This document shows, in pieces, positions 5,042-48,862 of a DNA stretch of 64,000 nucleotides. A program made the position numbers and the translations under genes. The stretch is from an uncultured Gammaproteobacteria bacterium (GTDB taxonomy: Bacteria; Patescibacteriota; Patescibacteriia; UBA2196; GWA2-42-15): NCBI GenBank assembly GCA_964573135.1, contig CAZNIO010000005.1, positions 3,362-67,361 of the forward strand. The letters run 5' to 3'. Numbering within the stretch: position 1 is the first letter of the stretch; the number at the start of each line of letters is the position of its first letter. Below the pieces are notes generated by a model that did no database searches, had not been told where the DNA came from, and was given only the letters and a program-made list of their open reading frames with translations.

Positions 5042-6979
5042 ATGTACAAAGCACCCAATAAATTCCTTAACTTTCTAACAAAAAACAGCTCTTATCTGCT
5101 TTTCTCCTTTATTATCCTCTATATTATCTTCTTCTCTATAATCTGCCTACTCAAATACAACAATTTCCTCTATAATGCCCTTGATCTATCCATTATCAAT
5201 AACGTTTTCTATAATACCCTACACGGCAATGGTCTTTATTCCTCCATTCAAGGACATTCTTACTTGGGTGATCATTTCACACCCGTTATCTTCCTCCTAT
5301 TGCCCCTCTACGCCCTCTATCAGTCGCCAGTCACTCTTTTAGTCCTACAAACCATCTTTCTCGCTCTGGCCTCTTTACCTTTATATAAAATATGTCAAAT
5401 AATTTTAAAAAATAAAATACTACCACTCTTAATCTCTCTACTATGGCTACTAAGCCCCCTGGTCCACAACATCAATCTTTTCGAATTCCACTTTCTCTCC
5501 ATACTTCCCCTTTTCTTTTTCTCCTTTCTCTATTTTTATCTTAAAATTAAAGAAAACCCCCACAATAAGAAACTATTCGTATACTTTTTTATCTTCCTCG
5601 TCCTCTCACTTCTCATACGAGAAGATGTCTCCTTTATCTTCATGGCATTTGGCATAATCTTAATCTTTGATTTTTGGAAAAAAAGAAAAAGATATCAAAT
5701 ATTTATTATCGCCTACTGGCTAACAGCTATCAGCTATTTTATACTTGCAACAAAAACAATATCTCTCTATTCCCCTTCAAATTTCTCTCCATTTCTTTAT
5801 TACTACTCATGGCTAGGCGATACAAGTACTCAAATTATTAAAAATTTCTTTCTAAAATTTGATATGATTTTAAATCATATCTCAACCATAGGTAATTTCG
5901 AAATGGTTATAGGATTACTATTGCCATTCCTATTACTACCAATAATAAAACCAAAATATCTCCTCTTGTGTCTTCTTCCTTTTTCACAAATAATACTCAC
6001 ATCAGCTGGTGGCGGGGCACTCACCTGGCAAACTCATTATGCAGCTTTTTTCCTCCCAGGATTAACTATCTCCTTCGTTTTTGCTTTTAAAAAATTAAAC
6101 AAAATCACTAATCAACAACTCGGTTCTAAATACCTCCTCATCTCTCTTCTAATTATTGCTAATATATTTTTAATATTTTCCATCGGGCCATTAACAGGCA
6201 TAAATAACTTGTACGAAAAAGATAACTCTAAAATACAAAAAATACTCAAATCCATTCCAAAAAATACACCCATTGCCTCAGGCTACAACACCCTTCCTCA
6301 TTTATCCAGTCGTCAATATATCTACTCGCTAAACTACTTGTTTCTCGGACATGGACAATTTGCCACAACAAAATATATTACACAAAAAAATCCACAATAT
6401 ATTATCATCGACTCAAATGACTTAATTCATTATGATATTCAGCTGGCTCATCTTACTTGGAGCAAACCTCATTATGCACAAGGGTATGAACGATTAAGAA
6501 ATCTATTAACAGACTATGGAATCATAAGCTCAGCAGAAAATATAACGCTATTTAAAAAAAACCACCCCAGTAAAACCAAGCTCTATTCAGTACAAACACC
6601 CCCAACTGTCACACAGTCCAAATATAATTTTAATGCCCTTAAACTAATAGATTATAAAATCACAATCAACCCAACCACTGTCTCTTTGTCTTTTCAAATA
6701 GATGAACCAACAGACAATATCTATTATGCAAAAATAAAAACCAATAATCAATCAAAAATATTTCCCCTTGCCTACTTTTATCCAATCAAGGATTGGCACA
6801 ACGATGAAATCGTTACTGTTAATTATCCCCTAGATATAAAAATAGATCTCAATACTGAGATCTATCTGTCCCTTGTAGCCATACAAGGGGGCATTGAAAT
6901 TGATAACTTAAGAAATATTAAATTAGTGATTGATAAAGAAACAAATATCACCGATCAATCAATTAATCTTACTCATTAA
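5042..6979 (+). CDS. Polytopic membrane protein, about 12 TM, plus C-terminal soluble domain (possibly DUF2079-type)
   Basis: 645 aa. N-terminal 400 aa strongly hydrophobic with multiple TM segments (GDHFTPVIFLLLPLY...), C-terminal ~240 aa hydrophilic. Sits adjacent to the glycosylation cluster. Confidence 0.55.
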   Translation: MYKAPNKFLNFLTKNSSYLLFSFIILYIIFFSIICLLKYNNFLYNALDLSIINNVFYNTLHGNGLYSSIQGHSYLGDHFTPVIFLLLPLYALYQSPVTLLVLQTIFLALASLPLYKICQIILKNKILPLLISLLWLLSPLVHNINLFEFHFLSILPLFFFSFLYFYLKIKENPHNKKLFVYFFIFLVLSLLIREDVSFIFMAFGIILIFDFWKKRKRYQIFIIAYWLTAISYFILATKTISLYSPSNFSPFLYYYSWLGDTSTQIIKNFFLKFDMILNHISTIGNFEMVIGLLLPFLLLPIIKPKYLLLCLLPFSQIILTSAGGGALTWQTHYAAFFLPGLTISFVFAFKKLNKITNQQLGSKYLLISLLIIANIFLIFSIGPLTGINNLYEKDNSKIQKILKSIPKNTPIASGYNTLPHLSSRQYIYSLNYLFLGHGQFATTKYITQKNPQYIIIDSNDLIHYDIQLAHLTWSKPHYAQGYERLRNLLTDYGIISSAENITLFKKNHPSKTKLYSVQTPPTVTQSKYNFNALKLIDYKITINPTTVSLSFQIDEPTDNIYYAKIKTNNQSKIFPLAYFYPIKDWHNDEIVTVNYPLDIKIDLNTEIYLSLVAIQGGIEIDNLRNIKLVIDKETNITDQSINLTH

Positions 6980-8504
6980 TATTTACAGGAGGAGTTACTA
7001 CTATTAACTGAGGGCGAACAAAACCACCGAACTGCTCAACATCTTCCAGGCGCCAACCATTCTGCCAAAACCAATCCATAACAATACCCGCGTTGTGTAT
7101 ATTCGCCGCTACAACAGGATAAATAATTAACACGCGCTTGGCATCACCGACCACCTCTCCTACATCTCGCATATTTTCCTCCGTAATTACCGGATACCAA
7201 TTATATTTCACTGCCTTCAATAAAAAATTACTCTCAAGGCCATCTGGCTCATAGCCAATTACCTCTAAATCACCTCGATAATAATAATCAAAGGGCAATT
7301 TATACACAAACGCAGGCGACAATATAACATCGCCTTTTTTTTCTATACTCTCAACATATCGCGCAATTTTATCCCATTCATTTTGGCTGCGCTTGTCAAC
7401 CATCCATAAGTTATATGGAGCAAGGATAACAAAAATCAATATAAGTAAAAAAAATCGAAACTTCTTGCTAATATTTAAGTTATCAAGACCCATGGCAAGT
7501 AATAAATAAAAACCAATAGACCCCACTGTATAATACTTGGCTACCCATACTTGAGTAAAAAATCCAACAAAAAGAGGAAAAAGAAAAAGCATCAACATAA
7601 AAACCAATGCTCTACCCTCTCTCAATTTCATCTCAACCCTTTTTTCCTTTAGGAAAAAAGTAAATTTAAAAAGAGCCAATAAAAACAAACTCCCAACTAT
7701 AACCATGCCAGAAGCGTCAATCAAGTGAAGCTTCTCTCCCAAAAACATAAAAGAGCGGGGCAACTGCCAAAAAAAGAAACCACCACCCTCGGTGTTTAAA
7801 TACCATGCGCCACTATTCACACTGCTCACCGACCTCATCACAAACACCGACAACCATGGCAGAAAAAGAAAAAATACGACCAGCTGTGCCACAATCCATT
7901 CTAAAAGTAAAACACTTTTCTTTTTTAAAAAATAATAATCATACACAAAATATAAACTATGAACTATAAACAAAAACAATGCAGTAATATGTGTATATAT
8001 TGCTAAACACGAAAAAAGAAGATATAAAAACCAATTCAATCTATTCTTATTACCATCAAACAACTCCCAAAAAAAATAACAAGACAAAATACTAAAAAAT
8101 ACTAGCATAGGATACATACGCGCCTCCATAGCAAAAAACAACTGATAAGACGAAAAGGCAAAAAGAAACGCTGCCATCAACCCAATCCGTCGATTAGCCA
8201 ATCGTTTACCTAAAAAATATATAGCTATTATTCCAAAAATACTAAAAAGTACTGACGACAAACGCACTGCCTGCTCTGCTTCACCAAACATTTTAACCCA
8301 AAAATGCAAAAATATATAATGCGCTGGCGGATTATTTTCCCATTCCAGATACTGCCAACTTTCTATCACTCCTTTTTTGGCAATTTCTAAGCTAACTACC
8401 TCGTCAAACCAAAAACTTTTACTGTTTAAAACCGCGGGCATTCTAAAAGCCAGTGCCAAAAAAATAATTAGTATTAAAATTAAAATTGCCTTATTTAATT
8501 TCAT
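6969..8504 (-). CDS. GT-C fold glycosyltransferase, ArnT/PMT (GT39/GT83)-like polyprenol-phosphate-sugar dependent
   Basis: N-terminal TM followed by FWFDEVVS (the DE motif of ArnT/PMT-type GT-C enzymes). About 11 TM segments, C-terminal soluble domain. Confidence 0.75.
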   Translation of the reverse strand: MKLNKAILILILIIFLALAFRMPAVLNSKSFWFDEVVSLEIAKKGVIESWQYLEWENNPPAHYIFLHFWVKMFGEAEQAVRLSSVLFSIFGIIAIYFLGKRLANRRIGLMAAFLFAFSSYQLFFAMEARMYPMLVFFSILSCYFFWELFDGNKNRLNWFLYLLFSCLAIYTHITALFLFIVHSLYFVYDYYFLKKKSVLLLEWIVAQLVVFFLFLPWLSVFVMRSVSSVNSGAWYLNTEGGGFFFWQLPRSFMFLGEKLHLIDASGMVIVGSLFLLALFKFTFFLKEKRVEMKLREGRALVFMLMLFLFPLFVGFFTQVWVAKYYTVGSIGFYLLLAMGLDNLNISKKFRFFLLILIFVILAPYNLWMVDKRSQNEWDKIARYVESIEKKGDVILSPAFVYKLPFDYYYRGDLEVIGYEPDGLESNFLLKAVKYNWYPVITEENMRDVGEVVGDAKRVLIIYPVVAANIHNAGIVMDWFWQNGWRLEDVEQFGGFVRPQLIVVTPPVNINE

Positions 8505-8507
8505 ATA

Positions 8508-9218
8508 TTATTTAGAAAATCTCAACTTAATAACTGTTGTGAAAAATTCAAAAATATCCCCCGTACTCAATTTAGACTTGCCATGCTCTCTGTCAACGAA
8601 TACCACAGGAATCTCTTTTATTCTAAAATTTTTTTTCTCACACAAATAAATCAATTCTTCCTGAAAAGCATAGCCATTGCTTCCTATTTTATCAAGATTA
8701 ATCTTCTTTATGGCTTCAGTCCTAAAACATCTAAATCCAGCCGTTATATCCCTGGTCTTTAACCCAAGAATAAATCGGGCAAAAGCCATAGCACATTTGC
8801 TTTGAAAATTTCTCCTAAAGCCCCAGCCCTTAACCGAACCACCCTTAATGCGACGAGAACCAATTACTACATCATTCCCATTAATAATCTCCTCAATAAG
8901 TCGTGGGATATCTTTGGGATTATGAGAAAAATCAGCATCCATTTCAAAAACCAAATCTGCCCCTTCTAAAAATGCCTTCTTAAAACCTTCAATATATGCT
9001 GACCCTAATCCCAATTTACCTTTTCTATGTATCACTCCAAGACGATCATCGCCATATACTGAAATCAAATCATCAACTATCTTCCCAGTCCCGTCCAAAG
9101 AATTGTCATCCACTACCACAACATGTAAATCAACAATATTTAAATTAAAAATTGCTTCTAATATTTTAGATATATTCTCCTTCTCATTATACGTTGGTAA
9201 TATAATATATTTTTTCAT
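8508..9218 (-). CDS. GT2 polyprenol-phosphate glycosyltransferase (DPM1-like)
   Basis: ILPTYNEKENI ... VVVDDNSLDGTG ... DAD motifs. 236 aa soluble GT-A. Confidence 0.85.
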   Translation of the reverse strand: MKKYIILPTYNEKENISKILEAIFNLNIVDLHVVVVDDNSLDGTGKIVDDLISVYGDDRLGVIHRKGKLGLGSAYIEGFKKAFLEGADLVFEMDADFSHNPKDIPRLIEEIINGNDVVIGSRRIKGGSVKGWGFRRNFQSKCAMAFARFILGLKTRDITAGFRCFRTEAIKKINLDKIGSNGYAFQEELIYLCEKKNFRIKEIPVVFVDREHGKSKLSTGDIFEFFTTVIKLRFSK

Positions 9219-10855
9219 AAAACTTGAAAAACTTGAATTTCTACATTGTTATAAACCAAATTTAAATAATCTTTCTCCATTGGATTAAAATTACCAAAAT
9301 CTTTCTCTCCTAAACCATAAAATACGTAATCAATACCCTCTTTTCTTAAAAACTTCAACTTCATATTATCAGCACTATCACTTTTATAAAACCACTCCAT
9401 CTGATCAAGCTTGCTTTCATAAAATAATGTTTCAACCGCGTGACCAATAAAAACTTTTCTGCCAGATTGACCTGGGATAAAATTGCCATTATACAAATCA
9501 GAAATTATAACGTCATCTTGATCCATATTTTCAGAAAGCCACTCATAGGCCTCCACTTTTTCTTGGGATATATAATAATAAGGGTAAATATCTTTAAATA
9601 ACATTGTCTCCCGTGTCCAATTATACATATGAGACGGCGTAAACAAAAAAATAAACAAAAATAAAAGTAAATATTTATTTGAGGCCAACCAATACAATTT
9701 GCCACTCTGAAAAAAACGCCCATACAAATACCACACACCAGCCACTGCCAGCAAAGCTATCGGCATACTCAAGCCCTGTATCATTCTCCTCTGAAAATTA
9801 AAAGGAGAAAAAATTAATATACTTTGTACTATAAACCAAGTAATTAAAAAAACCTGCCTTTCTCCTGCTTCTTTCCTCTTCACTATATAATAAACTGCTA
9901 TAAATGCCAAGAATAAAACAAATCCATAACTGCCAATAGTCACCCACAGGGATGGAGTCAAACAAATGTTTTGCAATACTCTAATTTGTGTAACAAAATC
10001 ATATTTAATTAATATCACATAATATATCAACGATGGCAATGACAGGATAAATATAACAAAAAAATGCTTCAAATATCTATACAAAATTCTTCTTTTTAAA
10101 ATAGACTGAACCCCAATATATACTCCAAGTACACCAAAAATAGTTGGTACATGGAATGGATGAAATTGGAAAAGCACAAGAGACATTACCCCAGCCCATA
10201 TACTATACCTCCAGCTATTTTTTAAAAAAGCAAAATAAGAAAAAAGAAAAATTAAAACAATAAGTGTACTAGCCAAAATCAAATGAGGCGACTGGAACAT
10301 GGTCAATAGATTATTCGCTTCTGGCGCCCATAAATCAAGTGGCCAGTTATACCAACCCTTTACATAAACACTATTTGTAAGAAACAAAGAAATAGGCACT
10401 CCAAAGCCTGACGCAAAACACATAAAAATTAGGGATATTTTACGCCATTCTTCTTTTTTCCAAAATAAACTACTCAATAAATACAATACGAAAACAAACA
10501 AAGGAATAAATATAATACGTGTCAATTGAAAAACCATTAAATTGGAAAGTCCGGTATATTTACCAACTAGCCCTTGAGCCAGCCAAAAACTATTAACCAT
10601 TGACCGGGACTGACTCTCCCCCGTATATAAATCCTCAAAAACAAAATTTCCCTGCCGCGCCTGTTCCATGTACGAAAAATATACATGTATATCCCCAGGA
10701 GTTAAAGAATGCAAACCAGTATAGACATAGCCGTCTGGCGCTTGTTGCCATCCATATATATATGGCAAGGTTGTAATAATAATTATTAATAAAGAAATTG
10801 CGAACAAAAACCGCCATTCTTTTTTTGTAATTGCTTTTATTAATCCAATAATCAT
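9215..10855 (-). CDS. Polytopic membrane protein, GT-C-like candidate
   Basis: 546 aa, more than 10 predicted TM helices. Start overlaps the upstream methyltransferase stop, stop overlaps the GT2 start. Confidence 0.55.
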   Translation of the reverse strand: MIIGLIKAITKKEWRFLFAISLLIIIITTLPYIYGWQQAPDGYVYTGLHSLTPGDIHVYFSYMEQARQGNFVFEDLYTGESQSRSMVNSFWLAQGLVGKYTGLSNLMVFQLTRIIFIPLFVFVLYLLSSLFWKKEEWRKISLIFMCFASGFGVPISLFLTNSVYVKGWYNWPLDLWAPEANNLLTMFQSPHLILASTLIVLIFLFSYFAFLKNSWRYSIWAGVMSLVLFQFHPFHVPTIFGVLGVYIGVQSILKRRILYRYLKHFFVIFILSLPSLIYYVILIKYDFVTQIRVLQNICLTPSLWVTIGSYGFVLFLAFIAVYYIVKRKEAGERQVFLITWFIVQSILIFSPFNFQRRMIQGLSMPIALLAVAGVWYLYGRFFQSGKLYWLASNKYLLLFLFIFLFTPSHMYNWTRETMLFKDIYPYYYISQEKVEAYEWLSENMDQDDVIISDLYNGNFIPGQSGRKVFIGHAVETLFYESKLDQMEWFYKSDSADNMKLKFLRKEGIDYVFYGLGEKDFGNFNPMEKDYLNLVYNNVEIQVFQVL

Positions 10856-11475
10856 AGGCTCTCTTTCTTAACTTTAAACCAAATATTCATACCCATCTCA
10901 AAATACCCATACTGCATATTTTCAGTTAAAAACCCAGAGGAAGCGCCAAGTGTCACCAACTCATTAAAATTATAATAAGCTTTATGCTCATCTATCTCCT
11001 CCTTACTTACAAGCCCAACTCGAGCCATCACGCGCAATACTTTATCAGCCCTTAAAGCCGGGGTAGTTAAAAAACAAAAACCGCCGGGAGATAAAACTCT
11101 ATGAATTTCACTCACAAGCAATCTAGCGGACTCGGGCTCAAGATGCTCTATCACGGCCATCATTGTCACCATATCAAAATAGTTATCTTCAAAGGACAAC
11201 TTGCAATTTACTTCAAGGTCTTGAGATATTAATTCAACACCAGCCCGAGTAACTACTTCATCTTCCTTAATTCCTGATAATTTATCGATTCCCCATCTCT
11301 CATTAAAACCACTTTCCAATAACAATAAAGGATAATGACCCGAACCAATATCCAAAATACGCCCTGAAAAATTGCAAGAACTGTTCTTTTTTTTAAATAT
11401 CTTTATCCTTTTTTTAGCCAAAAAATTTTCAAGTAACCCTGCGCCACGAGTAACTTTTCTATCTATATTAGTCAT
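10852..11475 (-). CDS. Class I SAM-dependent methyltransferase
   Basis: Motif I ILDIGSGHYP, motif post-II, VLSPGGFCFLTTP. Confidence 0.8.
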   Translation of the reverse strand: MTNIDRKVTRGAGLLENFLAKKRIKIFKKKNSSCNFSGRILDIGSGHYPLLLLESGFNERWGIDKLSGIKEDEVVTRAGVELISQDLEVNCKLSFEDNYFDMVTMMAVIEHLEPESARLLVSEIHRVLSPGGFCFLTTPALRADKVLRVMARVGLVSKEEIDEHKAYYNFNELVTLGASSGFLTENMQYGYFEMGMNIWFKVKKESL

Positions 11476-13195
11476 AAATTACTTGATAAATATAATTATT
11501 GCCAAAATTAATAGCATAATCCAAATAACCGCTATCCTCTATCTCTTGAATAATTCTATCCTTGTCCTCATCTTTTTTTTCAAAATAATCAAAATGAAAA
11601 ACCATATAATTTGTCTTGTATTCTCGTATTGTGGAAATATCTCTATCTAAATTAAAATATTTGAACCTGGTTGCTAATTCAAAATATCCAGGTGAACAAT
11701 ACCCACTATAACCATTAACTATTTTTCTAAAATGCAAACGCGAATTAAACACATAGTTAATGTCATAATTAATAAATAAATCATAGGGTGACGCCATCGG
11801 TAATTCCCAAAACACCATCGTATTAGGCTGATCCTTTATCCATGAATACGTCGCTCTTTCCTGGGGAGTCAATCCAATCAGTCCATACGCTGGTGTTGGT
11901 ATAAAGGTAAGCTCAGTAAATAAAAATATAAACACCCAAAACACCGATAATAACTTAATGAATATACTCTTACCCTGCTTTAGCCACCATGCCATACCAT
12001 AGCCAATAACAACCGCCATACTAAGAAGCAAAAACACACTATAGCGTCCCGCCGCTCGAATACCGTTAAATCCGGGCAATAAATAATAAAGAAGGATATA
12101 AGGGCCAGGTATACCTGACTTATCTACAAAGGTCAATTGAATATAGTAACCAAAGGATATCAAAAAAGCTACGAGCCCAACAGCTCCGTAAATAACAAAA
12201 TTTCGTTTATTATTACCCTCCCTAAAAAATTCACTCCTGTAAAGCGCCATCATTGCCAAAATAAACAACAAAATAATCACTAATCCGGGACTAACAATCA
12301 TCTCAATATGCCCTCTCTCTTGAGAATAAACTTCATACCAGGGAGAAGGTATAAAATAATCCACCAAATCTGGAGAATGCGCCTCAACTTCACCGATAAG
12401 TCTCGTATTAACTCCATATTCATTCTTCACCTGATAATATGGTCGGATCAAAGGCAAAACGATCATCACTAATAATAACATCGCCAATAATATCTTAATT
12501 ATATTCCCCCGATTAAAAGAAAAAGCCCTAACTGAGATAAAAATCACGCCAAAAAAAACAATCACAATGGGCAAAAAAATAAAATAATGCATACTATTTA
12601 AAAATACCAATATCACAAAAAACAACAAAATTAGTACATTCTTCCAGCTCTGTTTCTTGAAAAATTTATGTAAATATAAAAAAACAAAAGGTAACCACAT
12701 GCCAACCAGGTGCAAATGCTCTGCGCTTTGTGCCACCTTAAATGGATTAAAAGCGTAAACCAAAGCAGCCAATAAACTTGCCCACTTATTTTTAGTTAAA
12801 TAATATACAAGCGCATACATGCCCATACCAGAAATTGCAAAAGATAAAAAAATTATCAAATTATATGTTAAAGCAATATTTCCAGTCGCCTTAAGAATTG
12901 GCCAAGCCATAAATGTCGTTCCTAAAAAAGTTTCAGAAAAAGCAAGCGTATTACTAAAAGGAGCATAAATATTTGCCTCAAACAAATTCAAGGGGTTATT
13001 TGCTAAAATCTCCATATTCCACGACCACACCCAAGATATATAGTAAGCGTCACGTTGTGGCATCTTATAATCAATCTCAGACCAAGGAATATCAAGACTC
13101 ATACTTGCAAGTTGCATAAAAACAACACAAATAAAAATATACTGCAATACATTCCCACGTTTTAATAATTTCCAAAATTTAACAATAAAATCCAT
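11468..13195 (-). CDS. Polytopic membrane protein, paralog B (GT-C-like candidate)
   Basis: 575 aa. N-terminal YISWVWSWNMEILANNPLNLFEANIYAPF closely parallels 13926..15617 (YIWSWEMEMLPNDPLNLFHANIFYPF). Further colinear motifs: GMWLPFVFLYL vs GMWLPYVFLWL, SPDLVDYFI in both, GYYIQLT in both. Confidence 0.65.
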   Translation of the reverse strand: MDFIVKFWKLLKRGNVLQYIFICVVFMQLASMSLDIPWSEIDYKMPQRDAYYISWVWSWNMEILANNPLNLFEANIYAPFSNTLAFSETFLGTTFMAWPILKATGNIALTYNLIIFLSFAISGMGMYALVYYLTKNKWASLLAALVYAFNPFKVAQSAEHLHLVGMWLPFVFLYLHKFFKKQSWKNVLILLFFVILVFLNSMHYFIFLPIVIVFFGVIFISVRAFSFNRGNIIKILLAMLLLVMIVLPLIRPYYQVKNEYGVNTRLIGEVEAHSPDLVDYFIPSPWYEVYSQERGHIEMIVSPGLVIILLFILAMMALYRSEFFREGNNKRNFVIYGAVGLVAFLISFGYYIQLTFVDKSGIPGPYILLYYLLPGFNGIRAAGRYSVFLLLSMAVVIGYGMAWWLKQGKSIFIKLLSVFWVFIFLFTELTFIPTPAYGLIGLTPQERATYSWIKDQPNTMVFWELPMASPYDLFINYDINYVFNSRLHFRKIVNGYSGYCSPGYFELATRFKYFNLDRDISTIREYKTNYMVFHFDYFEKKDEDKDRIIQEIEDSGYLDYAINFGNNYIYQVIYD

Positions 13196-13208
13196 TAAAA
13201 AAACTTAA

Positions 13209-13919: not shown

Positions 13920-13925
13920 AATATT

Positions 13926-15617
13926 TTAATTAATTTTATACACATAATCATTGTCTTCGATTTTTACTAGCTCAACATACTCATTTTTTTCAATCTCATT
14001 AATCAAATACTCCTTATAACTCTCGGCATAACAATCAAAATGAAATATGATATGCGTCACACCATAATTTAGAACAAAATCAACATCCTCACTGTTAAAT
14101 TTAAATAATTCTTTGTTAAGCTCTGTATAATCATCCGGTGCATACCCACTATACCCATTAACCGTTTTATGAAAAACTCCAATTGAACAATATTCATGCA
14201 AGGCATTATAATTCCTCCGCAGATGATCAATGCCCATCGGCATCTCTAAATAAACGTTATCATCATTTTGATCATTCACCCATTCATAAATAGCCGAACA
14301 GGGCTGACCGATGCTAGCATAATGCCTTGGATGAGCAAAACTAAACTCAAAAGCCAGTAGAGAAATTATAAACAAAGTTATTAATAACTTCTTCCAGTGT
14401 TTCTTAACTATTGAATCGAAAAATTCAGACAAACCATATGATATTATAATACACGATGCAATCAAAAAGAAAATACTAAAACGACCCAAAACCCTAATTC
14501 CATCGGCTCCTGGTACAAAATGATAAAAAAACGCCCACGGACCCATTAAGCCAAAGGTATCTGCCCGAGTCAGTTGTATATAATAACCAAAAGAGAACAA
14601 AACTGCCAAAATACCAATTATATAATAAATTATAGTACGGAAAACTAATTCTTGTCTTTTTTTAAAAATAAACCAACTTGAGAAAAAAAATAAAATTAAT
14701 ACAAACCAACCGGGTCCAATCGCCCATTCAGGAAAAAATACAGGATAAAAATATTTATACACAAAAGGACTTATAAAATAATCAACTAAATCAGGCGACA
14801 GGCCTTCAATTGAACCAATAGCTCTATTAAAATCAAATTCTTGCCCCATGGATATGTAACTCCATGCTATTGGTGCAACCAAAAATAAAAAAATTAAAAA
14901 ACAAAGACCCATTTTAAGCAGATTATTTCTCGATAATTTAAACTTGTTAAGTAAGTAATCACTAAAAAATATTAAAAAAATACACACACACAAAAAAATA
15001 AAATACTGCAGACCATTTAAAAAAGAAAGTGCCACAAAAAAAGTTAGTAATAATATATTTCTCCATGTATTTTCGTTCAAAAATTTTCTCAACCATAAAA
15101 ATACATATGGTAGCCACATCCCACCTAAATTAATATGTTCTAAATGATGGATCTTAAATGGAGCAAAGGCATAAATAAAAGCACCAATCACAGCAACATA
15201 TTTATTTTTCGTTAAATATTCAAGTAATAAATACATACCCAGTCCGCCAATTGCAAAAGACAATAAACTTACCAAATTGAAAGACATCATAATATTATTA
15301 AAAATCAAGAATAATGGCCAAGCCAAAACTAACGACCCGAGCATATGTTCAGTAAAGAGCAGGGTATACTTAAAAGGATAAAAAATATTAGCATGAAATA
15401 AATTCAATGGGTCATTCGGCAGCATTTCCATTTCCCACGACCAAATATAACTCACGAGCATGGGATCCCCATCAGTCGGCAAAACGCTACCAATATTCCC
15501 AAACGGTATTCTTGTAAAAAAAATTGCCAGAATAAAAAACAGAACAAAAACAATAAACGCCCAAGCTCTATTTTGTGAAAAAAACATATTAATCTTTTTT
15601 CCTCGGAAATTTATCAT
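13926..15617 (-). CDS. Polytopic membrane protein, paralog A (GT-C-like candidate)
   Basis: 563 aa. Colinear with 11468..13195 (see that entry). Confidence 0.65.
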   Translation of the reverse strand: MINFRGKKINMFFSQNRAWAFIVFVLFFILAIFFTRIPFGNIGSVLPTDGDPMLVSYIWSWEMEMLPNDPLNLFHANIFYPFKYTLLFTEHMLGSLVLAWPLFLIFNNIMMSFNLVSLLSFAIGGLGMYLLLEYLTKNKYVAVIGAFIYAFAPFKIHHLEHINLGGMWLPYVFLWLRKFLNENTWRNILLLTFFVALSFLNGLQYFIFLCVCIFLIFFSDYLLNKFKLSRNNLLKMGLCFLIFLFLVAPIAWSYISMGQEFDFNRAIGSIEGLSPDLVDYFISPFVYKYFYPVFFPEWAIGPGWFVLILFFFSSWFIFKKRQELVFRTIIYYIIGILAVLFSFGYYIQLTRADTFGLMGPWAFFYHFVPGADGIRVLGRFSIFFLIASCIIISYGLSEFFDSIVKKHWKKLLITLFIISLLAFEFSFAHPRHYASIGQPCSAIYEWVNDQNDDNVYLEMPMGIDHLRRNYNALHEYCSIGVFHKTVNGYSGYAPDDYTELNKELFKFNSEDVDFVLNYGVTHIIFHFDCYAESYKEYLINEIEKNEYVELVKIEDNDYVYKIN

Positions 15618-16927
15618 ACTCTAAAAAATATAGAAAAAAAACCTTCAAGCTTACCGAAAAGAGGAATAAACAATTCCTCACCAAAAAAACTATACGTACC
15701 TCCATACCAAAATGCGCCAAAGCCAATATAGGCAAACAAAAATGAACAAAACAAAATCACAAAAAAATAAAACAAAAATCTTTTATTTAAAAAATTATCC
15801 ATCAAGGTTGATATAAAAAAGAAAATACATGCATAGCAAATAATAAACCACCTAAAGCCATATTCCAAGCCACCGTAATTATTAGTAAACACTGTTAAAC
15901 TAAACAATATTAAGCCCGCAGTAAGGGCTATCCATAATGCTAAGTTATACAAAATATGTTTCCTATCAAATATCACTTTAGTTATACCCCATGCACCAAA
16001 AATTAAAATAGGTGAATACAAAAAAATACCATGCGAACCAATCAATATATTAAATAAATACAATAATTTATTATGCCTCAAAGCATCAATGCCTCTCGGT
16101 TCCAGCCAATAACTACCAGCATATTCATATAACCCACTATTTAAATAAGCCGGAAATATATTTCCTGTAACTTGTAAATTAAACAGTAGATATAATAATA
16201 TAACAGGCAGGGCTCCCCAAATATAATAAAGAGAATATTTTCTTGTCTCTTTGTTCATTAATAAGTATACAAAACAAGTCACAAAAAATATTGATCCCTG
16301 CACCACCTCCGTAGATACAGCCAAAGACATCGATAACCCACACAGCGCAACCAGCTTGTTAATTTTTATTACACCACCAAAATTAATTTTTAACAAACAA
16401 TAAAACGCCCAAAAAACAAATAATGCGGACAATATATGATTGCCAAAACTCGCAGAATAAGTAAATAAAAGCGTCCCAAACCCAAGCGACAAGGTAAATA
16501 GCATTTTATACTCTTCCTTGACCTTCACTAACCCTAAAGCTCTATAAAAAAACACCAACAAAAAAGAAAAGGGCAAAGCTACTGTTAAAACACACAAAAT
16601 ATAATAGACTAAAAATGAAAATTTTAAATCAAAAACATTATATAATATATAATATATGCCAGCCCCCAATATTGACGGAAGTGGCGCCTTAGTAGAATAA
16701 AAATGCCCATCACGATAAATCTTGTCAATTGTGTCCATGTCTGGCACTGACTCAATAGCCAAGGTTCCATGCTCCACTAAAGCACGCACAGTTAATATAC
16801 GAGAAGTAGTTAAGTCCCCCGCATAATGTGCAGTAAGCATAGATACAATAAAAAAACCAATAAAGAATATTAAAAACTGCTTTGATTTCAAAATATCATT
16901 TAATACTGTTAATATCTTCTTTCTCAT
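15614..16927 (-). CDS. Polytopic membrane protein (GT-C-like candidate)
   Basis: 437 aa, about 11 TM. Periplasmic-loop motif RDGHFYSTKAPLPS after TM1. Confidence 0.55.
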   Translation of the reverse strand: MRKKILTVLNDILKSKQFLIFFIGFFIVSMLTAHYAGDLTTSRILTVRALVEHGTLAIESVPDMDTIDKIYRDGHFYSTKAPLPSILGAGIYYILYNVFDLKFSFLVYYILCVLTVALPFSFLLVFFYRALGLVKVKEEYKMLFTLSLGFGTLLFTYSASFGNHILSALFVFWAFYCLLKINFGGVIKINKLVALCGLSMSLAVSTEVVQGSIFFVTCFVYLLMNKETRKYSLYYIWGALPVILLYLLFNLQVTGNIFPAYLNSGLYEYAGSYWLEPRGIDALRHNKLLYLFNILIGSHGIFLYSPILIFGAWGITKVIFDRKHILYNLALWIALTAGLILFSLTVFTNNYGGLEYGFRWFIICYACIFFFISTLMDNFLNKRFLFYFFVILFCSFLFAYIGFGAFWYGGTYSFFGEELFIPLFGKLEGFFSIFFRV

Positions 16928-17207
16928 TTATTTTAACTAAATATAAATTTCTAAAATAAATAACGGTGGACAATATTCCGCTAACAATAAAAACAGGATC
17001 CTTAATATGAAAAGAATAAATCAAAAGCATAATCGCTCCAATAATACTTAAATACCAATAAGTTACTGGAATGACACTTTTTTTAGCTTTCTCAGAAGAT
17101 ATCCACTGAACAAGAACGCGCATAAAAAAAATAAATTGTGCTAAAAAACCAAAAAATATCCAAAAATTAAAATATTGCCAAAAATTAAACATATTATTTT
17201 TTAGCAA
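16896..17207 (-). CDS. Small membrane protein with lipid-A-biosynthesis N-terminal (LAB_N, PF07578-like) domain
   Basis: FMRVLVQWISSEKAKKSVIPVTYWYLSIIGAIMLLIYSF resembles the LAB_N consensus (VQW..SE.aK.SV.P..FW.lS..G). 3 TM. Confidence 0.55.
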   Translation of the reverse strand: MLKNNMFNFWQYFNFWIFFGFLAQFIFFMRVLVQWISSEKAKKSVIPVTYWYLSIIGAIMLLIYSFHIKDPVFIVSGILSTVIYFRNLYLVKINEKEDINSIK

Positions 17208-19050
17208 CTACTAAATAGCAGTGGCTTAAATCTGAATTAATAAAAATCCTTTGTAAAAAATAAAATGGTAACAACACAAAATCATTAAACAGAAAAAAGA
17301 ATTTCCCAGCAATGCCCCTATCAATACCACTCTTGTTGGTATTGTGCTGTTTATCAGATGATGCTGACTCCCATTTCGCTATTCTTTTGCGTATAAACCT
17401 TAAAATATTAACTAACGGAAATCCATAACTGTATATTCTCTCAATTAAAAAACCAGCCGACTCCATCATCTGTTCTATCTCTCTCCTTTCATAACGCCTA
17501 AAATGCCCGGCCCCTTCATCAAGAATACTCCATTCTTTTTTATGAGCCGGCACAGAAAAAATAAAATAACCACCATTATTGATCAAAGAATGTATCTTCG
17601 CTATGGTTGACCTGTCATCTTTAATATGCTCTAGAACTTCAAAAGCAAAAATCATATCATATTTTGCATCTCCTGTTTTTTGCATAATATCTTGGTGCTG
17701 TATCAAAATTTGTTTTGAAAAATCTGCAGTCCTTAATCGAGCAATTGTTACAGCGTCCTCAGATACATCTATGCCTTGGCCAGAAAAACCCATCTTAACT
17801 AGGTCAAGACAAAAACTACCACCCCCAACACCAATTTCTAAAAAAGATTTTGTCAAAGGCATTTCGCTTATAACATCATCAAAAATAATTTTTTTTCTAA
17901 ATCGATAACTAGAGCTATCATGCCATGTTTTTCTTTTCACCAACTCATCAATAATATTTTTAAAATCTTCAGACGTTTTTTCAATAAGAAAATTATTTTT
18001 AAATAATTCTAACGCTCCACAACTAATTCTATCTCTCAACTTTTTATCTACCTTAAGCTTTAAAATAATATCAGCCAAAGCCTGACTGTCACCTACGGGG
18101 CACATCATTGCATTCTCTTTATCTACAAAACCGGCTGAACGCGAAGCCGAAGAATCAGCAACTATAACCGGCTTAGCCATCGCTATCATCTGAAATGTTT
18201 TATTGCTCACAACACGACAAGCTTTATCACTCTTACCAAAATGACCACCGAGACAAATATCTGCTTTAGCAATTTTTTGAGGTAATTTATAAAATTCAAC
18301 CCAGTCTAAAAAAGTAATTTTATGCTCAATATTAAGTTCTTTAGCTAATCCAATTATTTTACTGTGAACTTGACCAGTGCCAACAATTGTAAAATGGACA
18401 TCTTTATTTCTTAATATATTCACAGCCCTGATAATATACTTAATCCCATGAATAGGGGTAAATTTACCATAAAATAATACTTCAAATTTTTTATTATTAT
18501 TTACAGAATTAATTGGAGTAAAAATTTTATCATCTGCCCCAATATAAACAAAGCTTAACTTGCTTTCAGGCACCTTAAACTGTTTACAAAAATACTTAGC
18601 ATGTTCAGGAGTATCTAAAACAATCTTGTTGGCCAACAAGCAGCTGATCTTATCTAATGAATAAACAGCTTTTTTAATCAAATAATTATCACTTATCTTG
18701 CGATCATTAATCATCGTATCATAAAGTGATATCATTGGATTGAATATTATTTTTTTGGTTGGAAACAAAATCCTCGCCAATATCATATCTAATTGACCAG
18801 GGTAACCAACCACGACACAATCGACCTTGGACAGACTCAATCGTCTCCAAATTAGTTTAAAATAACAGAATATTAAATTAAAAAATATTTTTAATTTATT
18901 ACCGAAAGTAATGGAAAATTTATTTTCTATTCCGTCGAATAATGATTCGTGCAACTCGACAACCTGAACTCCTTTCAATCTCAGTCCCAAAATAACATTT
19001 TGGTTACGTGGATATTTGGCTTCATAGGTTCCAAAATAACAAAGTTTCAT
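17194..19050 (-). CDS. Fusion protein: N-terminal glycosyltransferase (GT4-like Rossmann) plus C-terminal class I SAM methyltransferase
   Basis: N-terminal ~380 aa with GT-B-like C-terminal half (GGHFGKS...VIVADS). C-terminal ~230 aa with LEIGVGGGSFCLDL and IFAFEVLEHIKDD methyltransferase motifs. Confidence 0.65.
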   Translation of the reverse strand: MKLCYFGTYEAKYPRNQNVILGLRLKGVQVVELHESLFDGIENKFSITFGNKLKIFFNLIFCYFKLIWRRLSLSKVDCVVVGYPGQLDMILARILFPTKKIIFNPMISLYDTMINDRKISDNYLIKKAVYSLDKISCLLANKIVLDTPEHAKYFCKQFKVPESKLSFVYIGADDKIFTPINSVNNNKKFEVLFYGKFTPIHGIKYIIRAVNILRNKDVHFTIVGTGQVHSKIIGLAKELNIEHKITFLDWVEFYKLPQKIAKADICLGGHFGKSDKACRVVSNKTFQMIAMAKPVIVADSSASRSAGFVDKENAMMCPVGDSQALADIILKLKVDKKLRDRISCGALELFKNNFLIEKTSEDFKNIIDELVKRKTWHDSSSYRFRKKIIFDDVISEMPLTKSFLEIGVGGGSFCLDLVKMGFSGQGIDVSEDAVTIARLRTADFSKQILIQHQDIMQKTGDAKYDMIFAFEVLEHIKDDRSTIAKIHSLINNGGYFIFSVPAHKKEWSILDEGAGHFRRYERREIEQMMESAGFLIERIYSYGFPLVNILRFIRKRIAKWESASSDKQHNTNKSGIDRGIAGKFFFLFNDFVLLPFYFLQRIFINSDLSHCYLVVAKK

Positions 19051-19063
19051 ATAAATAAAAATT

Positions 19064-20008
19064 TTAAATTATTTTCTTAATTGAATAATCTTTATCTCTT
19101 CTAGACATATTGGCAATCATTTCTCCAATTAAGCCGAACAGTACTAATTGAACTCCAATAATAATCAGCAAAACAGCAAAAATAAGTAATGGCCTACCTC
19201 CAATAGGCTGGCCTAATATAATTTTAATGTAAGTCAAGTATAGCCCAACCATGAACCCCGCCAAAAAGAATAAACTGCCCACTCCTCCAAAAAAATGAAG
19301 GGGTCTTTTTAAATAAAAAAATAAAAACCCAACCGTAATTAAATCAAAGAAACCACCAAATATCCTTGAAAAGCCATATTTACTCTTACCGAATTTTCTC
19401 TTCCTGTGGTTTACTTTAACCTCATCTACATTAAATCCCTTAAAATCAGCAAACACGGGAATATACCGGTAAAGACCAGCATATAAATCCAAATACGGAA
19501 TTATCTCGCGCCTCATGCATCTGTAGCCATTATCAAAATCGTGTAAACAAAGCCCCGTCATTCGCCTCAAAATAATATTAAAAAATCTAGACGCCATCAC
19601 TCGAGTCAATCGATCAGCCCTCTTATGCTTCCAGCCAATTACAATGTCATTGCCCTCTTCAAGCTTTGATATAAATTTTCTGATATCCCCCGGATCATCC
19701 TGTAAATCACCATCCATTGTAATAACCAACTCTCCTCGACATTCATTAAATCCCGCCTTATAAGCCGCCGCCTTACCAAAGTTGCGCCTCAACTCTATAA
19801 TTTTTAATCGACTTTCTTCTCGGTTCTTCATTTTTTCCAATATCTTTTGTGACCCGTCAGTTGATCCATCATCTACAAAAATAACCTCATATTTATCCGC
19901 CAATGCGCTTAAATTCTTTTTTAACTCATCATATAAAATTTCTAAATTTTCCTGTTCATTATAAACAGGAATCACCACCGATATTATATATTTATTACTT
20001 TCTATCAT
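19064..20008 (-). CDS. GT2 polyprenol-phosphate glycosyltransferase with C-terminal TM helices (ArnC/GtrB-like)
   Basis: SVVIPVYNEQENL ... FVDDGSTDGS ... MDGDLQDDP. Two C-terminal TM segments typical of GtrB/ArnC. Confidence 0.85.
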   Translation of the reverse strand: MIESNKYIISVVIPVYNEQENLEILYDELKKNLSALADKYEVIFVDDGSTDGSQKILEKMKNREESRLKIIELRRNFGKAAAYKAGFNECRGELVITMDGDLQDDPGDIRKFISKLEEGNDIVIGWKHKRADRLTRVMASRFFNIILRRMTGLCLHDFDNGYRCMRREIIPYLDLYAGLYRYIPVFADFKGFNVDEVKVNHRKRKFGKSKYGFSRIFGGFFDLITVGFLFFYLKRPLHFFGGVGSLFFLAGFMVGLYLTYIKIILGQPIGGRPLLIFAVLLIIIGVQLVLFGLIGEMIANMSRRDKDYSIKKII

Positions 20009-20699
20009 AAATTAAAAAAATATTCTTAATATAATCAAAAACGACTACGATAACCCCCACTTTACTTTTCCTTTCGTTAATAATTGTCTCCTGCCATTTA
20101 ACTGGTATCTCCTTAATTTTCATGTTTAATTTCTGAGATAATACTAACATTTCCGTATCAAAAAACCAAGCTTTATTCTCAACATTGGGTAAAATCTCAT
20201 CTATCACCCGCCTATTAACAGCCTTAAACCCACATGGCGCATCCTTGATTCTTAATCCTAAAAAAATTTTCAACAACAAGCGTAAAACATTAGAATAAAA
20301 TCTACGCAATAAGGATCTCTCGACTTTAGCCCCAGACATAAATCTTGATCCCACTACTATATCAAACCCATCATTCACTCCAGCTATTAATTCTGGCAAT
20401 GCTATCAAATCAGTCGATAAATCAATATCCATATAGACATAAATATTACCAGGAAAACCCTTCCATGCTTCCATTACTCCATAACCCTTACCTTTCTTAC
20501 TAAAACGAAAATATTCTATTTCTTCATACTTCTCAGCTAGATAGCAACCAATTTCTGCCGTTTTATCTGTCGATCCATTATCTGACAATATAATCTGCCA
20601 AACATCATCTAAGTTCTTTTTACAAAAAGAAAATACTCTCAGGGTATTCTCTTCCAAAACTAATTCTTCATTTAAAACAGGTAAAACTATTGTAATCAT
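19995..20699 (-). CDS. GT2 glycosyltransferase
   Basis: ITIVLPVLNEE ... LSDNGSTDKT ... MDIDLSTD. Confidence 0.8.
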   Translation of the reverse strand: MITIVLPVLNEELVLEENTLRVFSFCKKNLDDVWQIILSDNGSTDKTAEIGCYLAEKYEEIEYFRFSKKGKGYGVMEAWKGFPGNIYVYMDIDLSTDLIALPELIAGVNDGFDIVVGSRFMSGAKVERSLLRRFYSNVLRLLLKIFLGLRIKDAPCGFKAVNRRVIDEILPNVENKAWFFDTEMLVLSQKLNMKIKEIPVKWQETIINERKSKVGVIVVVFDYIKNIFLIYDRK

Positions 20700-20769
20700 A
20701 TAAAATAAATAAAAGGCTTATAAAAAGCCAGTGTATAACTTGTAAATTTTAATATAAAACTCATTGGTC

Positions 20770-21888
20770 CTATTTACCTAATCTCTCCTTAAAATAATCA
20801 ACCCAAGGGATAGGAGAAGGGTCAACACCATTCAATATGGCTAAATAAAAACTAACATATGATCCAATTAAAAGCATCTCAAAAGATTGCTCTAACTGAG
20901 TCATGCCTTCTAGCTCAACGCCTATATACCCAATCTTATTCTTCCTCACTACATCTTTAGTAATCTCAATTCTTTTTCTGTTCTTTTCATAATACAAAGA
21001 AGAATCAAAAAACACAAATTTTAAATTTTTACTATTAGTCCCAGGTTTTTTTAATCCCTCCATTAAATGATGATTCAACTCTGAAACAACATAGTAAAAA
21101 GAAAAATTCTTAGCATTCTCATTAATCTGATTGGTCATTACATGGGCATTGCCTGATAAAAAATCAGCCGTAATTATTACAGGAATTTTATCTTTCAAGT
21201 CCAACGCAATTTGCTTCGCTATATTTGCAGATGCCAATCTCCTTATATCAAATTTTTTCTTAACTTTTTTCAAAAATAATATAACACTTTTAATCTCATT
21301 ATCGCTCACATTAACTACCCCCGCCTGTCGCAGTAAACCCAAAAGTCCAGTTACCGAATAGCTTATCCCCATTCTAGGCTCTCCGCACGGATTATGACGC
21401 TCGTCAATTAAATAACCAGCCACCTCGCCATTCTTTATTAATTCTCCTAATCTACCACCAGTAGAAATTCCAAGAATCTGTGACCCCCTCTTCTTTGCCT
21501 CCTTACGTGAAAACAAAACCTCCTCAGTATTACCAGAATAACTCGATAAAATAAATAAAGTATTTTTATCCACCATCCCAGGAACTTGATAGCTGTGAAT
21601 ATTACCAACTGGCACTTTCAATTTTTTAAAAAAAACAGATTGGATAATATGAGCCCCCAGACCAGAACCGCCCATACCATTAATCACCACCTTATCTATC
21701 TTGTTAAAAGAACCGCCTAACTTCACTTTTTTCGTCTCGCTCCAGGCCTGTTCAATTTGCTTATAAAAAGAATCAATTGACCCAATCATATTTGATTGAT
21801 CCATCCTCTCAATCCTCTTTATATTATCCAATATATTCATAAATTTATTGATTATATAACCAACCTCTTGTCTATTTAATTCTATCAT
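20770..21888 (-). CDS. Bifunctional phosphoglucose/phosphomannose isomerase (SIS domain, archaeal-type PGI/PMI)
   Basis: Two SIS-like halves. VINGMGGSGLGAHI, SYSGNTEE. Confidence 0.65.
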   Translation of the reverse strand: MIELNRQEVGYIINKFMNILDNIKRIERMDQSNMIGSIDSFYKQIEQAWSETKKVKLGGSFNKIDKVVINGMGGSGLGAHIIQSVFFKKLKVPVGNIHSYQVPGMVDKNTLFILSSYSGNTEEVLFSRKEAKKRGSQILGISTGGRLGELIKNGEVAGYLIDERHNPCGEPRMGISYSVTGLLGLLRQAGVVNVSDNEIKSVILFLKKVKKKFDIRRLASANIAKQIALDLKDKIPVIITADFLSGNAHVMTNQINENAKNFSFYYVVSELNHHLMEGLKKPGTNSKNLKFVFFDSSLYYEKNRKRIEITKDVVRKNKIGYIGVELEGMTQLEQSFEMLLIGSYVSFYLAILNGVDPSPIPWVDYFKERLGK

Positions 21889-29420: not shown

Positions 29421-29424
29421 TTAT

Positions 29425-29514
<90 letters not shown>

Positions 29515-48848: not shown

Positions 48849-48862
48849 TAGCTAACTTCGTC

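Follow-up and report, generated by a model that had tools for sequence, protein, structure and literature searches.

A probable multi-component transmembrane glycosylation system encoded by a chromosomal operon of a Patescibacterium

Introduction

In transmembrane glycosylation systems with multiple components, a glycosyltransferase (GT) of the GT-A class produces a sugar linked to C55-phosphate, a small membrane protein flips this donor or assists the process, and the transfer of the sugar on the outside is the task of a GT-C enzyme; several GT-A/GT-C pairs may occur in a single genome, and three independent pairs are present in Lactococcus lactis (PMC8035078). GtrA/GtrB/GtrC of enterobacteria and phages, CsbB/GtcA/YfhO and GtlA/GtcA/GtlB of Bacillus and Listeria, and CsdAB/CD/EF with CflA of Lactococcus all bring together a GT of family 2 (GT2), a small membrane protein and a GT-C enzyme. 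The same combination is found in a gene cluster from contig CAZNIO010000005.1, described here on the basis of a stretch of 64,000 nucleotides (hereafter the window, meaning the whole stretch of DNA that was analysed), whose closest named relatives belong to Candidatus Kuenenbacteria (Patescibacteria, Parcubacteria group). With a probability of about 80%, this chromosomal operon encodes an expanded multi-component transmembrane glycosylation system. It is a known kind of surface-decorating system; what is notable is the number of GT-C genes crowded together in a reduced genome, the presence of two GT-C families that lack a family model, and a lead on the role of a small membrane protein with a LAB_N domain. 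Patescibacterial cells live attached to others, and their genomes are very small; that about 17 kb is devoted here to extracytoplasmic glycosylation, in the form of a conserved core plus swappable modules, suggests that the surface glycan is important for the envelope or for the contact with the host, and the swappable modules also point to a glycan that diversifies between lineages.

As in the multi-component systems, several GT2/GT-C pairs are found in one organism and, as in CsbB/GtcA/YfhO, one of the GT-C-like families of the cluster has YfhO-positive relatives. The differences are also clear: a LAB_N protein stands in place of the GtrA-family protein of GtrABC-type systems, and, unlike the three-component systems, this single locus contains six GT-C-like and four GT2 genes, in addition to a GT4 domain fused to a methyltransferase and a further, separate methyltransferase; two of its GT-C families have no Pfam or NCBIfam model, and the host is a Patescibacterium.

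Two groups of actinobacterial enzymes are also similar. The occurrence of a GT2 resembling dolichol-phosphate mannose synthase (DPMS) beside a PMT-type GT-C recalls Ppm1/Pmt, while the presence of a cytoplasmic GT4 together with many extracytoplasmic GT-C enzymes recalls the pathway for phosphatidylinositol mannosides, lipomannan and lipoarabinomannan (PIM/LM/LAM), where PimA and PimB are GT4 enzymes, PimE belongs to GT87, and MptA/B/C and the GT-C proteins Emb and Aft also take part. AftA, AftB, AftD, Emb and Pmt4 are indeed among the fold matches of the cluster proteins. However, none of these proteins reaches an equivalog-level match to the actinobacterial enzymes, no inositol-lipid genes are seen, and the actinobacterial genes are scattered, whereas here a single operon is found.

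Organization of the gene cluster

The cluster consists of 13 open reading frames (ORFs) placed back to back on the minus strand, between positions 6969 and 21888 of the window; a further gene converges on it from the other strand. The ORFs are listed below in the order of transcription, with the convergent gene last, and the proteins are designated by the first coordinate of their genes (TM, transmembrane; PGI and PMI, phosphoglucose and phosphomannose isomerase; SAM, S-adenosylmethionine).

20770..21888, minus strand: SIS-domain isomerase of the bifunctional PGI/PMI family (SIS; bact-PGI_C, E 3e-37, 128 bits, cut-off 24.5)
19995..20699, minus strand: GT2 without TM helices, DPMS/ArnC-like, part of the conserved core (Glycos_transf_2, E 1.6e-18; DPMS 5mlz, 1.1e-17; ArnC, 2.2e-16)
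19064..20008, minus strand: full-length ArnC/GtrB-type GT2 with C-terminal TM helices (ArnC 9bhc, 5.5e-53, residues 9-301; GtrB 5ekp, 8e-36)
17194..19050, minus strand: cytoplasmic fusion protein of 618 aa, a GT4-type (GT-B) glycosyltransferase joined to a SAM-dependent methyltransferase (Pfam)
16896..17192, minus strand: LAB_N small membrane protein with about three TM helices (LAB_N, PF07578, E 1.3e-28, 99.3 bits, cut-off 26.7)
15614..16927, minus strand: predicted GT-C-fold transferase of a rare family (AlphaFold and Foldseek; no Pfam or NCBIfam model)
13926..15617, minus strand: predicted polytopic transferase, GT-C-like and part of the conserved core, from a family resembling YfhO/PTPS_related/DUF6311 (family links; no direct Pfam match)
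13209..13919, minus strand: GT2 without TM helices, AglJ/DPMS-like (Glycos_transf_2, E 3.9e-34; DPMS, 1e-16; ArnC, 1.3e-15)
11468..13195, minus strand: predicted GT-C-like transferase, paralog of 13926 (39% identity, E 1e-117)
10852..11475, minus strand: stand-alone, cytoplasmic SAM-dependent methyltransferase (Methyltransf_11, E 1.7e-11)
9215..10855, minus strand: predicted GT-C-fold transferase, part of the conserved core (AlphaFold and Foldseek; no Pfam or NCBIfam match)
8508..9218, minus strand: DPM1/DPMS-type GT2 catalytic domain without TM helices (5mlz, 7.4e-37, residues 1-232 against 23-246)
6969..8504, minus strand: last gene of the operon, predicted PMT_2-type GT-C (PMT/ArnT-like; PMT_2, E 6.2e-13; PMT, E 6.4e-6; both above gathering cut-offs)
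5042..6979, plus strand: convergent DUF2079 polytopic membrane protein (Pfam DUF2079, E 1.4e-60)

From the 19995 GT2 gene (20699) to the last gene (6969), neighbouring ORFs overlap by at most 32 nt or are at most 13 nt apart; among the overlaps are those of 4 nt and of the ATGA type at 15614-15617, 10852-10855 and 9215-9218. The isomerase gene is found 70 nt upstream of the 19995 GT2 gene, with a weak terminator-like hairpin inside this gap, and is in turn preceded by an rlmE-like gene at a distance of 24 nt.

The co-directional arrangement and these three overlaps were recognised in the original prediction, which was made from the sequence without database searches and listed four DPM1/ArnC-type GT2 enzymes, at least five GT-C-like membrane proteins, two methyltransferase modules, a LAB_N-like protein and a PGI/PMI gene. 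All these components are recovered by Pfam matches, solved relatives, fold or family links; the list was correct as far as it went, but it lacked the GT4 domain (17194-19050) and the convergent DUF2079 gene (5042-6979). The interpretation that accompanied it was right in kind and is supported in part.

GT2 enzymes and donor synthesis

All four GT2 proteins are matched by Pfam Glycos_transf_2, with E values from 1.6e-18 to 1.5e-35, and their sequences contain acidic motifs of the DxD type (DAD, DGD or DID). When all PDB sequences are searched, the nearest solved relatives of the four proteins are DPMS (5mlz), ArnC (9bhc, 8vxh and 9hwj) and GtrB (5ekp). The 5mlz entry is the Pyrococcus DPMS, and its match with the 8508 protein, whose sequence includes MDADFSH, spans the whole catalytic domain; this enzyme is a putative polyprenyl-phosphate mannose or hexose synthase. 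In the 19064 protein, whose matches with ArnC and GtrB extend through the C-terminal membrane helices, a hydrophobic block is present at residues 216-301, and NCBIfam PRK10714 is matched with E 2.5e-61 and 207 bits, below the cut-off of 529; a putative undecaprenyl-phosphate sugar synthase is proposed. For the 13209 enzyme, a putative polyprenyl-phosphate hexose synthase, the top NCBIfam match is AglJ (E 5.7e-36, 124 bits, below the cut-off of 325), while the 19995 enzyme is a putative polyprenyl-phosphate sugar synthase. The top NCBIfam matches of the GT2 enzymes are polyprenyl-phosphate transferases, all far below the curated cut-offs.

The original prediction that the GT2 enzymes load polyprenyl-phosphate sugars inside the cell, for use outside by the GT-C enzymes, is supported by these relatives and by the GT-C assignments given below, both of which come from sequences and predicted structures. 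It also described the order "GT2, then GT-C" as a unit repeated several times; this order is present at 13209/11468 and 8508/6969, which are the only two direct cases.

At the head of the cluster, the 20770 isomerase scores 278 bits (cut-off 471) and 255 bits (cut-off 295) with the NCBIfam PGI/PMI models, below threshold in all cases. Membership of the bifunctional PGI/PMI family has the bact-PGI_C match in its favour and the NCBIfam results against it; the protein may supply sugar phosphates, perhaps mannose as originally suggested, and may as well be simply the glycolytic PGI of the cell.

GT-C membrane proteins

The five membrane proteins of the operon (6969, 9215, 11468, 13926 and 15614) are all polytopic, and all are assigned to GT-C by prediction: 6969 from profile matches, 9215 and 15614 from the fold of their models, 13926 and 11468 from family links. 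In 6969, 9215, 13926 and 15614 a Lys/Arg-rich N-terminus is followed by the first TM helix (TM1) and then by an aspartate, namely D34 of a D34-E35 pair, D55, D51 and D68, respectively. Judged from the basic N-termini, the acidic residue of loop 1 would lie outside the membrane, and the predicted location of this aspartate is where GT-C enzymes carry their catalytic acidic residue.

The AlphaFold model of 9215, built from an alignment of homologs, has a mean confidence score (pLDDT) of 94.2. In Foldseek searches against the PDB, all of its 27 matches at E <=1e-3 are GT-C enzymes or complexes containing them, including STT3-containing oligosaccharyltransferase (OST) complexes, DPY19, AglB, PglB, AftA, AftD and ArnT, with a best E value of 1.9e-10. 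The family, found only in Patescibacteria among the named matches, retains D55 after TM1 in 45 of 45 sequences and has a C-terminal extracytoplasmic alpha/beta domain. The closest structural matches are STT3, AglB and PglB (E 1.9e-10 to 4e-6, TM-score 0.5-0.6), and this similarity, together with the invariant aspartate of loop 1, recalls the GT66 enzymes. At the sequence level, the profile of the family gives a weak match to 3vu0, an entry for an AglB C-terminal domain (E 0.0048), which is a lead only; the entry appears in papers dealing with AglB C-terminal domains, and we take it to be AfAglB-S2. This weak match is the sole OST-related one; at the sequence level no full-length OST chain in the PDB is matched.

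However, STT3, AglB and PglB are defined by a WWDxG motif in the C-terminal domain (PMC3703281), and a search for WWD or W[WYF]D[YFW]G in the 9215 family found it in none of the 45 sequences; a canonical OST of family GT66 was therefore considered and rejected, despite the OST-like fold. Furthermore, DPY19, AftA and ArnT match the model nearly as well as the GT66 enzymes, and the profile relative of the family is the YfhO-like 13926 family (hhalign 97.9%, E 4.5e-13), in an alignment that includes the C-terminal soluble domain.

The model of 15614, obtained in the same way, has a pLDDT of 92.8; its leading PDB matches are Pmt4, ALG9, ArnT, AftB and ALG12, with E values from 5.6e-4 to 5e-3 and TM-scores of 0.5-0.57, and the top 17 also include Pmt1/2, AftA, AftD, EmbB, STT3 and one GPI-transamidase chain. 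D68 after TM1 is invariant in the 33 sequences of the family, a few distant relatives of which match GT87, PMT_2 or Glyco_transf_22. The genomic context of the distant homologs (Planctomycetes-like and others) contained no glycosylation neighbours and was uninformative. Both 9215 and 15614 represent predicted GT-C families that no family model covers, which makes them of interest for structural and biochemical studies.

The 13926 family is placed by its relatives: among 46 aligned sequences, PTPS_related is matched by 9, YfhO by 8, DUF2079 by 4 and PMT_2 by 3, and one relative carries the NCBI name "YfhO family protein"; the YfhO model (PF09586) gives no direct match with the two window proteins, 13926 and 11468. 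D51 after TM1 is retained in 43 of the 46 sequences. The paralog 11468 is matched by PTPS_related (26.6 bits, cut-off 26.4) and by DUF2079 (E 4e-5). The convergent 5042 protein is matched by the NCBIfam model LA_3751/LA_3752 putative glycosyltransferase (E 4e-7, below cut-off), and is probably a sixth GT-C-like enzyme, as judged from its sequence. Searches of the PDB with the single sequences of 6969, 9215 and 13926 and with alignment profiles gave no real match, only nanobody noise and the weak AglB C-terminal match.

The lack of a direct Pfam match for three of the five proteins (9215, 13926 and 15614) would be expected also if the polytopic proteins were transporters or unrelated membrane proteins in an ordinary cytoplasmic polysaccharide locus, an outcome that the original prediction had indicated as decisive against itself. 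In the Foldseek searches with the two confident models, GT-C proteins are found at probability 1.00, whereas transporters appear only at 0.10 or below, with E >0.28; the conserved loop aspartates and the family links to YfhO and PMT_2 point in the same direction. The transporter explanation is thus extremely improbable and is rejected.

The last gene of the operon, 6969, has both the profile matches and the loop-1 motif of the PMT type: PMT_2 scores 49.7 bits (cut-off 26.1) and PMT 26.3 bits (cut-off 22.7), and the D34-E35 pair immediately follows TM1; comparison of the single sequence with family profiles by hhalign gave a weak result (42%). Since it is directly preceded by the gene for the DPMS-like 8508 enzyme, and a PGI/PMI-family gene is adjacent to the cluster, the locus may be read as a Ppm1-Pmt-like system for O-mannosylation of secreted and surface proteins, including the giant proteins and the pilins encoded in the window; the OST-like fold of 9215 is also in agreement with a protein acceptor. 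Nevertheless, PMT_2 is a generic GT-C model, which also includes ArnT-like transferases acting on lipids and glycans, the best NCBIfam mannosyltransferase match reaches 33.6 bits against a cut-off of 900, and the 9215 family does not have the motif of the OST enzymes. The large surface proteins, proposed as targets in the original prediction, have a Ser/Thr fraction of 0.09-0.15, compared with 0.10-0.12 in cytosolic proteins, and thus are not enriched in these residues and show no sign of target regions for O-glycosylation; they belong to a separate locus resembling a type IV secretion system (T4SS), at least 22 kb away and beyond housekeeping genes. Moreover, O-mannosylation would account for one or two of the six GT-C proteins at most. 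On the whole, this explanation is unlikely, and no support was found for the downstream surface proteins as targets.

Cytoplasmic glycosyltransferase and methyltransferases

In the 17194 fusion protein, residues 182-343 are matched by Glyco_trans_1_4 (E 3e-16) and Glycos_transf_1, and residues 398-535 by Methyltransf_23 (E 1.7e-19). No TM segments were found in this protein or in the 10852 methyltransferase. From their sequences, it is plausible that methylated sugars are made by the cluster. SAM and nucleotide sugars are cytoplasmic and the two proteins have no TM segments; therefore, the GT4 domain and the methyltransferases are expected to act before flipping.

LAB_N protein

No member of the GtrA family is matched by Pfam among the cluster genes, and LAB_N is the sole membrane protein of small size encoded there. 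In the alignment of its relatives Q19, R25, Q29, W30, E34, R81 and N82 are invariant polar residues; LAB_N is presumably grouped by Pfam with the SWEET/PQ-loop families. The G+C content of the gene, 0.246, is the lowest of the cluster, the neighbouring genes being at 0.31-0.37.

LAB_N relatives number 1983 among 1.84 billion representative proteins. The best 150 of these 1983 include 46 proteins shorter than 170 aa, the size of a single domain, 88 of 170-299 aa, most of which have two LAB_N stretches, 4 of 300-499 aa and 12 of 500 aa or more. In ten long homologs that were scanned, LAB_N is fused to PMT_2/PMT in four cases, to GT87 in four and to LpxB in two; in the fusions with PMT_2 or GT87, LAB_N is the N-terminal part. 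The query with the LAB_N alignment retrieved 80 metagenome loci, while the single-protein query found none. A LAB_N ORF can be recognised in 71 loci; in 51 of these it immediately adjoins a GT2 gene, the product of which has its best window match in the ArnC-like enzyme without exception. When the loci are dereplicated at 80% identity, a same-strand GT2 lies directly upstream of LAB_N in 26 of 46, and all 26 enzymes are without TM segments and not longer than 300 aa; where the downstream sequence is long enough (30 loci), a protein with at least seven TM segments follows in 13. In addition, the slot that LAB_N occupies in the window, next to the 15614 gene, is taken in the related contig L010 (between methyltransferase and 15614 ortholog) by a 75-aa protein with two helices, whose top Pfam match is the C-terminal half of GtrA_DPMS_TM (E 2.3e-4, sub-threshold).

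Taken together, the ArnC-like neighbours devoid of TM segments, the fusions to GT-C proteins and the GtrA-like mini-protein in the L010 slot suggest that LAB_N is an accessory of the lipid-linked sugar step, equivalent to GtrA, acting as a flippase or as a partner of the synthase or of the transferase. The layout in other organisms is similar to GacI/GacJ/GacL of Streptococcus pyogenes, where a GT-A enzyme without TM helices, a small activator with three TM helices and a GT-C are found; unlike GacJ as described, LAB_N is also fused to its GT-C partner (PMC8035078). A literature search found no paper tying LAB_N to glycosyltransferases. GacJ presumably belongs to a family different from LAB_N.

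The LAB_N name, the LpxB fusions and the identification of ArnC as the nearest solved relative of 19064 could also indicate a system for the modification of lipid A or lipopolysaccharide, with ArnC/ArnT-like enzymes working together with LAB_N. However, the window contains no lpx or outer-membrane genes, the neighbouring genes are peptidoglycan genes of the Gram-positive type (FemX-like and MurE), and among the long LAB_N homologs the fusions to PMT_2 or GT87 (8) exceed those to LpxB (2); to our knowledge, lipopolysaccharide is absent in Patescibacteria. A role in lipid A modification can therefore be rejected as hardly credible, and for the majority of LAB_N members a name that refers to "lipid A biosynthesis" probably misleads.

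A broader proposal would join these observations, with LAB_N as a widespread GtrA-like subunit for donor delivery or flipping between GT2 and GT-C enzymes, and the present cluster as a hot spot containing two unmodelled GT-C families; we regard it as a tentative and rather unlikely generalisation. If it were true, 9215, with an OST-like fold and no OST motif, would have a new acceptor chemistry. In any case, LAB_N is a candidate for the moving or handover of polyprenyl-phosphate sugars, a step that in many organisms is poorly assigned to proteins, and the lead, if true, corrects a misleading annotation.

Conservation in related contigs

The same core order is shared by seven related contigs with full flanks, and partly by the short contig L004, with protein identities of about 40-65%. 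It includes the PGI gene, a polytopic protein of 505-537 aa, the 19995 GT2 ortholog, a variable insert, the 13926/11468 ortholog and the 9215 ortholog, followed by a GT2, a PMT_2 or other polytopic protein and the convergent DUF2079 gene. The isomerase gene is beside the cluster in the seven contigs, orthologs of the 19995 GT2 are present in all related loci with 48-60% identity, orthologs of 13926 are also present in these loci, and the convergent DUF2079 gene is at the same position in six of the seven (L002, L005, L006, L007, L010 and L011). Since this order recurs in seven contigs, the arrangement is not due to chance. The variable part corresponds, in the window, to the ArnC-like GT2, the GT4-methyltransferase, LAB_N and 15614; the window also contains a further set, made of the 13209 GT2, 11468 and a methyltransferase. 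A conserved core with exchangeable modules is the pattern typical of surface-glycan loci. A literature search returned nothing on glycosylation clusters in Patescibacteria.

The polytopic protein of 505-537 aa has 8-9 TM segments and no Pfam family, and it occupies the gap between PGI and GT2 in L002, L003, L005, L007 and L008; it is absent from the window, where only the 70-nt gap is found. A larger cluster is present in L010 (4593-21317), and also in L011, where seven consecutive genes encode polytopic proteins and are accompanied by the convergent DUF2079 gene and by four GT2 genes; in L010 the PGI gene is flanked by a TrmB regulator and a TM1266-like small protein.

Proposed mechanism

In the proposed mechanism, the four GT2 enzymes, one of the ArnC/GtrB type with its own TM helices and three DPMS-like without them, would move sugars from nucleotide sugars onto polyprenyl phosphate at the cytoplasmic face of the membrane. 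The lipid-linked monosaccharides would then reach the outer face, with LAB_N as the best candidate in the cluster for a GtrA-like accessory protein or flippase, and the five GT-C enzymes of the operon, together with the convergent DUF2079 protein, would attach the sugars to acceptors beyond the membrane. Most likely, the acceptor would be a glycopolymer or glycolipid anchored to the wall or to the membrane, and possibly also proteins through the PMT_2 enzyme. Before flipping, the building or methylation of a lipid-linked primer or donor would be the part of the two cytoplasmic proteins, the GT4-methyltransferase fusion and the free methyltransferase. While the enzyme classes, the folds, the conserved aspartates of the catalytic loop, the compaction of the operon and the synteny are observed, the carrier lipid, the sugars, the acceptors, the order of action and the role of LAB_N are what we infer from them.

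Several points weigh against this reading. None of the cluster enzymes (GT2, GT-C or PGI) reaches an NCBIfam equivalog cut-off, so that sugars and acceptors cannot be named. The predicted structures cover 9215 and 15614, while 13926, 11468, 6969 and 5042 are judged from sequence. For the 5042 protein, comparison of the single sequence with family profiles by hhalign is weak (15%), and its placement among GT-C enzymes depends on the Pfam clan and the naming of DUF2079, as we assume them to be. Promoter and terminator scans of the locus gave no difference from shuffled sequence, and are uninformative. Finally, the LAB_N gene is here parted from the ArnC-like GT2 gene by the GT4-methyltransferase gene, and this GT2 has its own TM helices, unlike the TM-less enzyme in GacI/GacJ/GacL; therefore, the combination of a TM-less GT2 with LAB_N does not directly apply to this cluster. 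The LpxB fusions also indicate that LAB_N may be only a membrane-anchoring or lipid-binding module.

Within the multi-component reading, the way in which the enzymes cooperate can be viewed differently. The original prediction proposed the serial building of one extracytoplasmic glycan, and an assembly line of this kind would start with a methylated lipid-linked primer made by the GT4-methyltransferase, which is flipped and then extended stepwise by the GT-C enzymes to form a lipoglycan or a wall glycan. This would resemble the mycobacterial PIM/LM/LAM pathway, where PimA and PimB are followed by PimE, MptA and MptB, and Ppm1 supplies polyprenyl-phosphate mannose. The presence of every gene in one tight operon, the GT4 domain, the distant 15614 relatives matching GT87 and Alg9-like models, and the excess of GT-C enzymes (5-6) over GT2 enzymes (4) are all in line with it. 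Conversely, the relatives lack the GT4 domain, and modules are swapped freely between the orthologs of the 19995 GT2 and of 13926, which fits add-on decorations better than an obligate pathway; the cluster also has no priming phosphoglycosyltransferase, polymerase, ligase or exporter. Parallel decoration by several modules is the other option, with the three independent pairs of L. lactis as an example, and the assembly line appears rather doubtful.

Alternatively, each GT2/GT-C pair could work as an independent module, adding one type of sugar to a different surface polymer or protein, in the manner of CsdAB, CsdCD and CsdEF of L. lactis or of GtrABC of enterobacteria. This is a real possibility, although it falls short of being probable: the order GT2, then GT-C, is found at 13209/11468 and 8508/6969, modules are gained and lost among the relatives, and several pairs sharing one flippase have a precedent (PMC8035078). 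On the other hand, the count is uneven, with four GT2 for five or six GT-C enzymes, and the conserved core contains a single GT2 ahead of two GT-C proteins, the orthologs of 13926 and 9215.

Neighbouring genes

Directly upstream of the cluster, in divergent orientation, the plus strand between 22606 and 26763 of the window encodes a FemX-like protein (FemAB), a sugar-1-phosphate nucleotidylyltransferase, MurE and a PfkB-family kinase; the cluster thus adjoins peptidoglycan genes and a possible gene for nucleotide-sugar supply. Further along, a tandem pair of tRNA-Ser genes (anticodons TGA and GCT), with 4 nt between them, is found at 29331-29514, and a TrmB gene, apart from the cluster, at 31064-31846.

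The T4SS-like or conjugation-like locus is on the minus strand, at 34408-61698, and includes the following genes.

34408-35112, minus strand: DsbA-like protein
37016-38908, minus strand: VirB4/TraG-type ATPase
39686-40114, minus strand: PrgI
47760-49921, minus strand: two T4SS_pilin proteins
55912-56544, minus strand: cohesin-domain protein
61093-61698, minus strand: TSP3-repeat protein
Within the locus, minus strand: giant proteins of 1124, 1965 and 1497 aa, with BACON_2, CBM_4_9 and PKD matches

A protein with Schlafen AlbA_2 and HATPase_c_4 domains, possibly regulatory or of a defence type, is also encoded within this locus, at 41154-42533. The G+C content of the window is 35%, and its GC skew is unusually strong for a segment of a bacterial chromosome, being negative in every 2-kb bin (-0.13 to -0.42), also between 22.6 and 34 kb, where the genes are on the plus strand.

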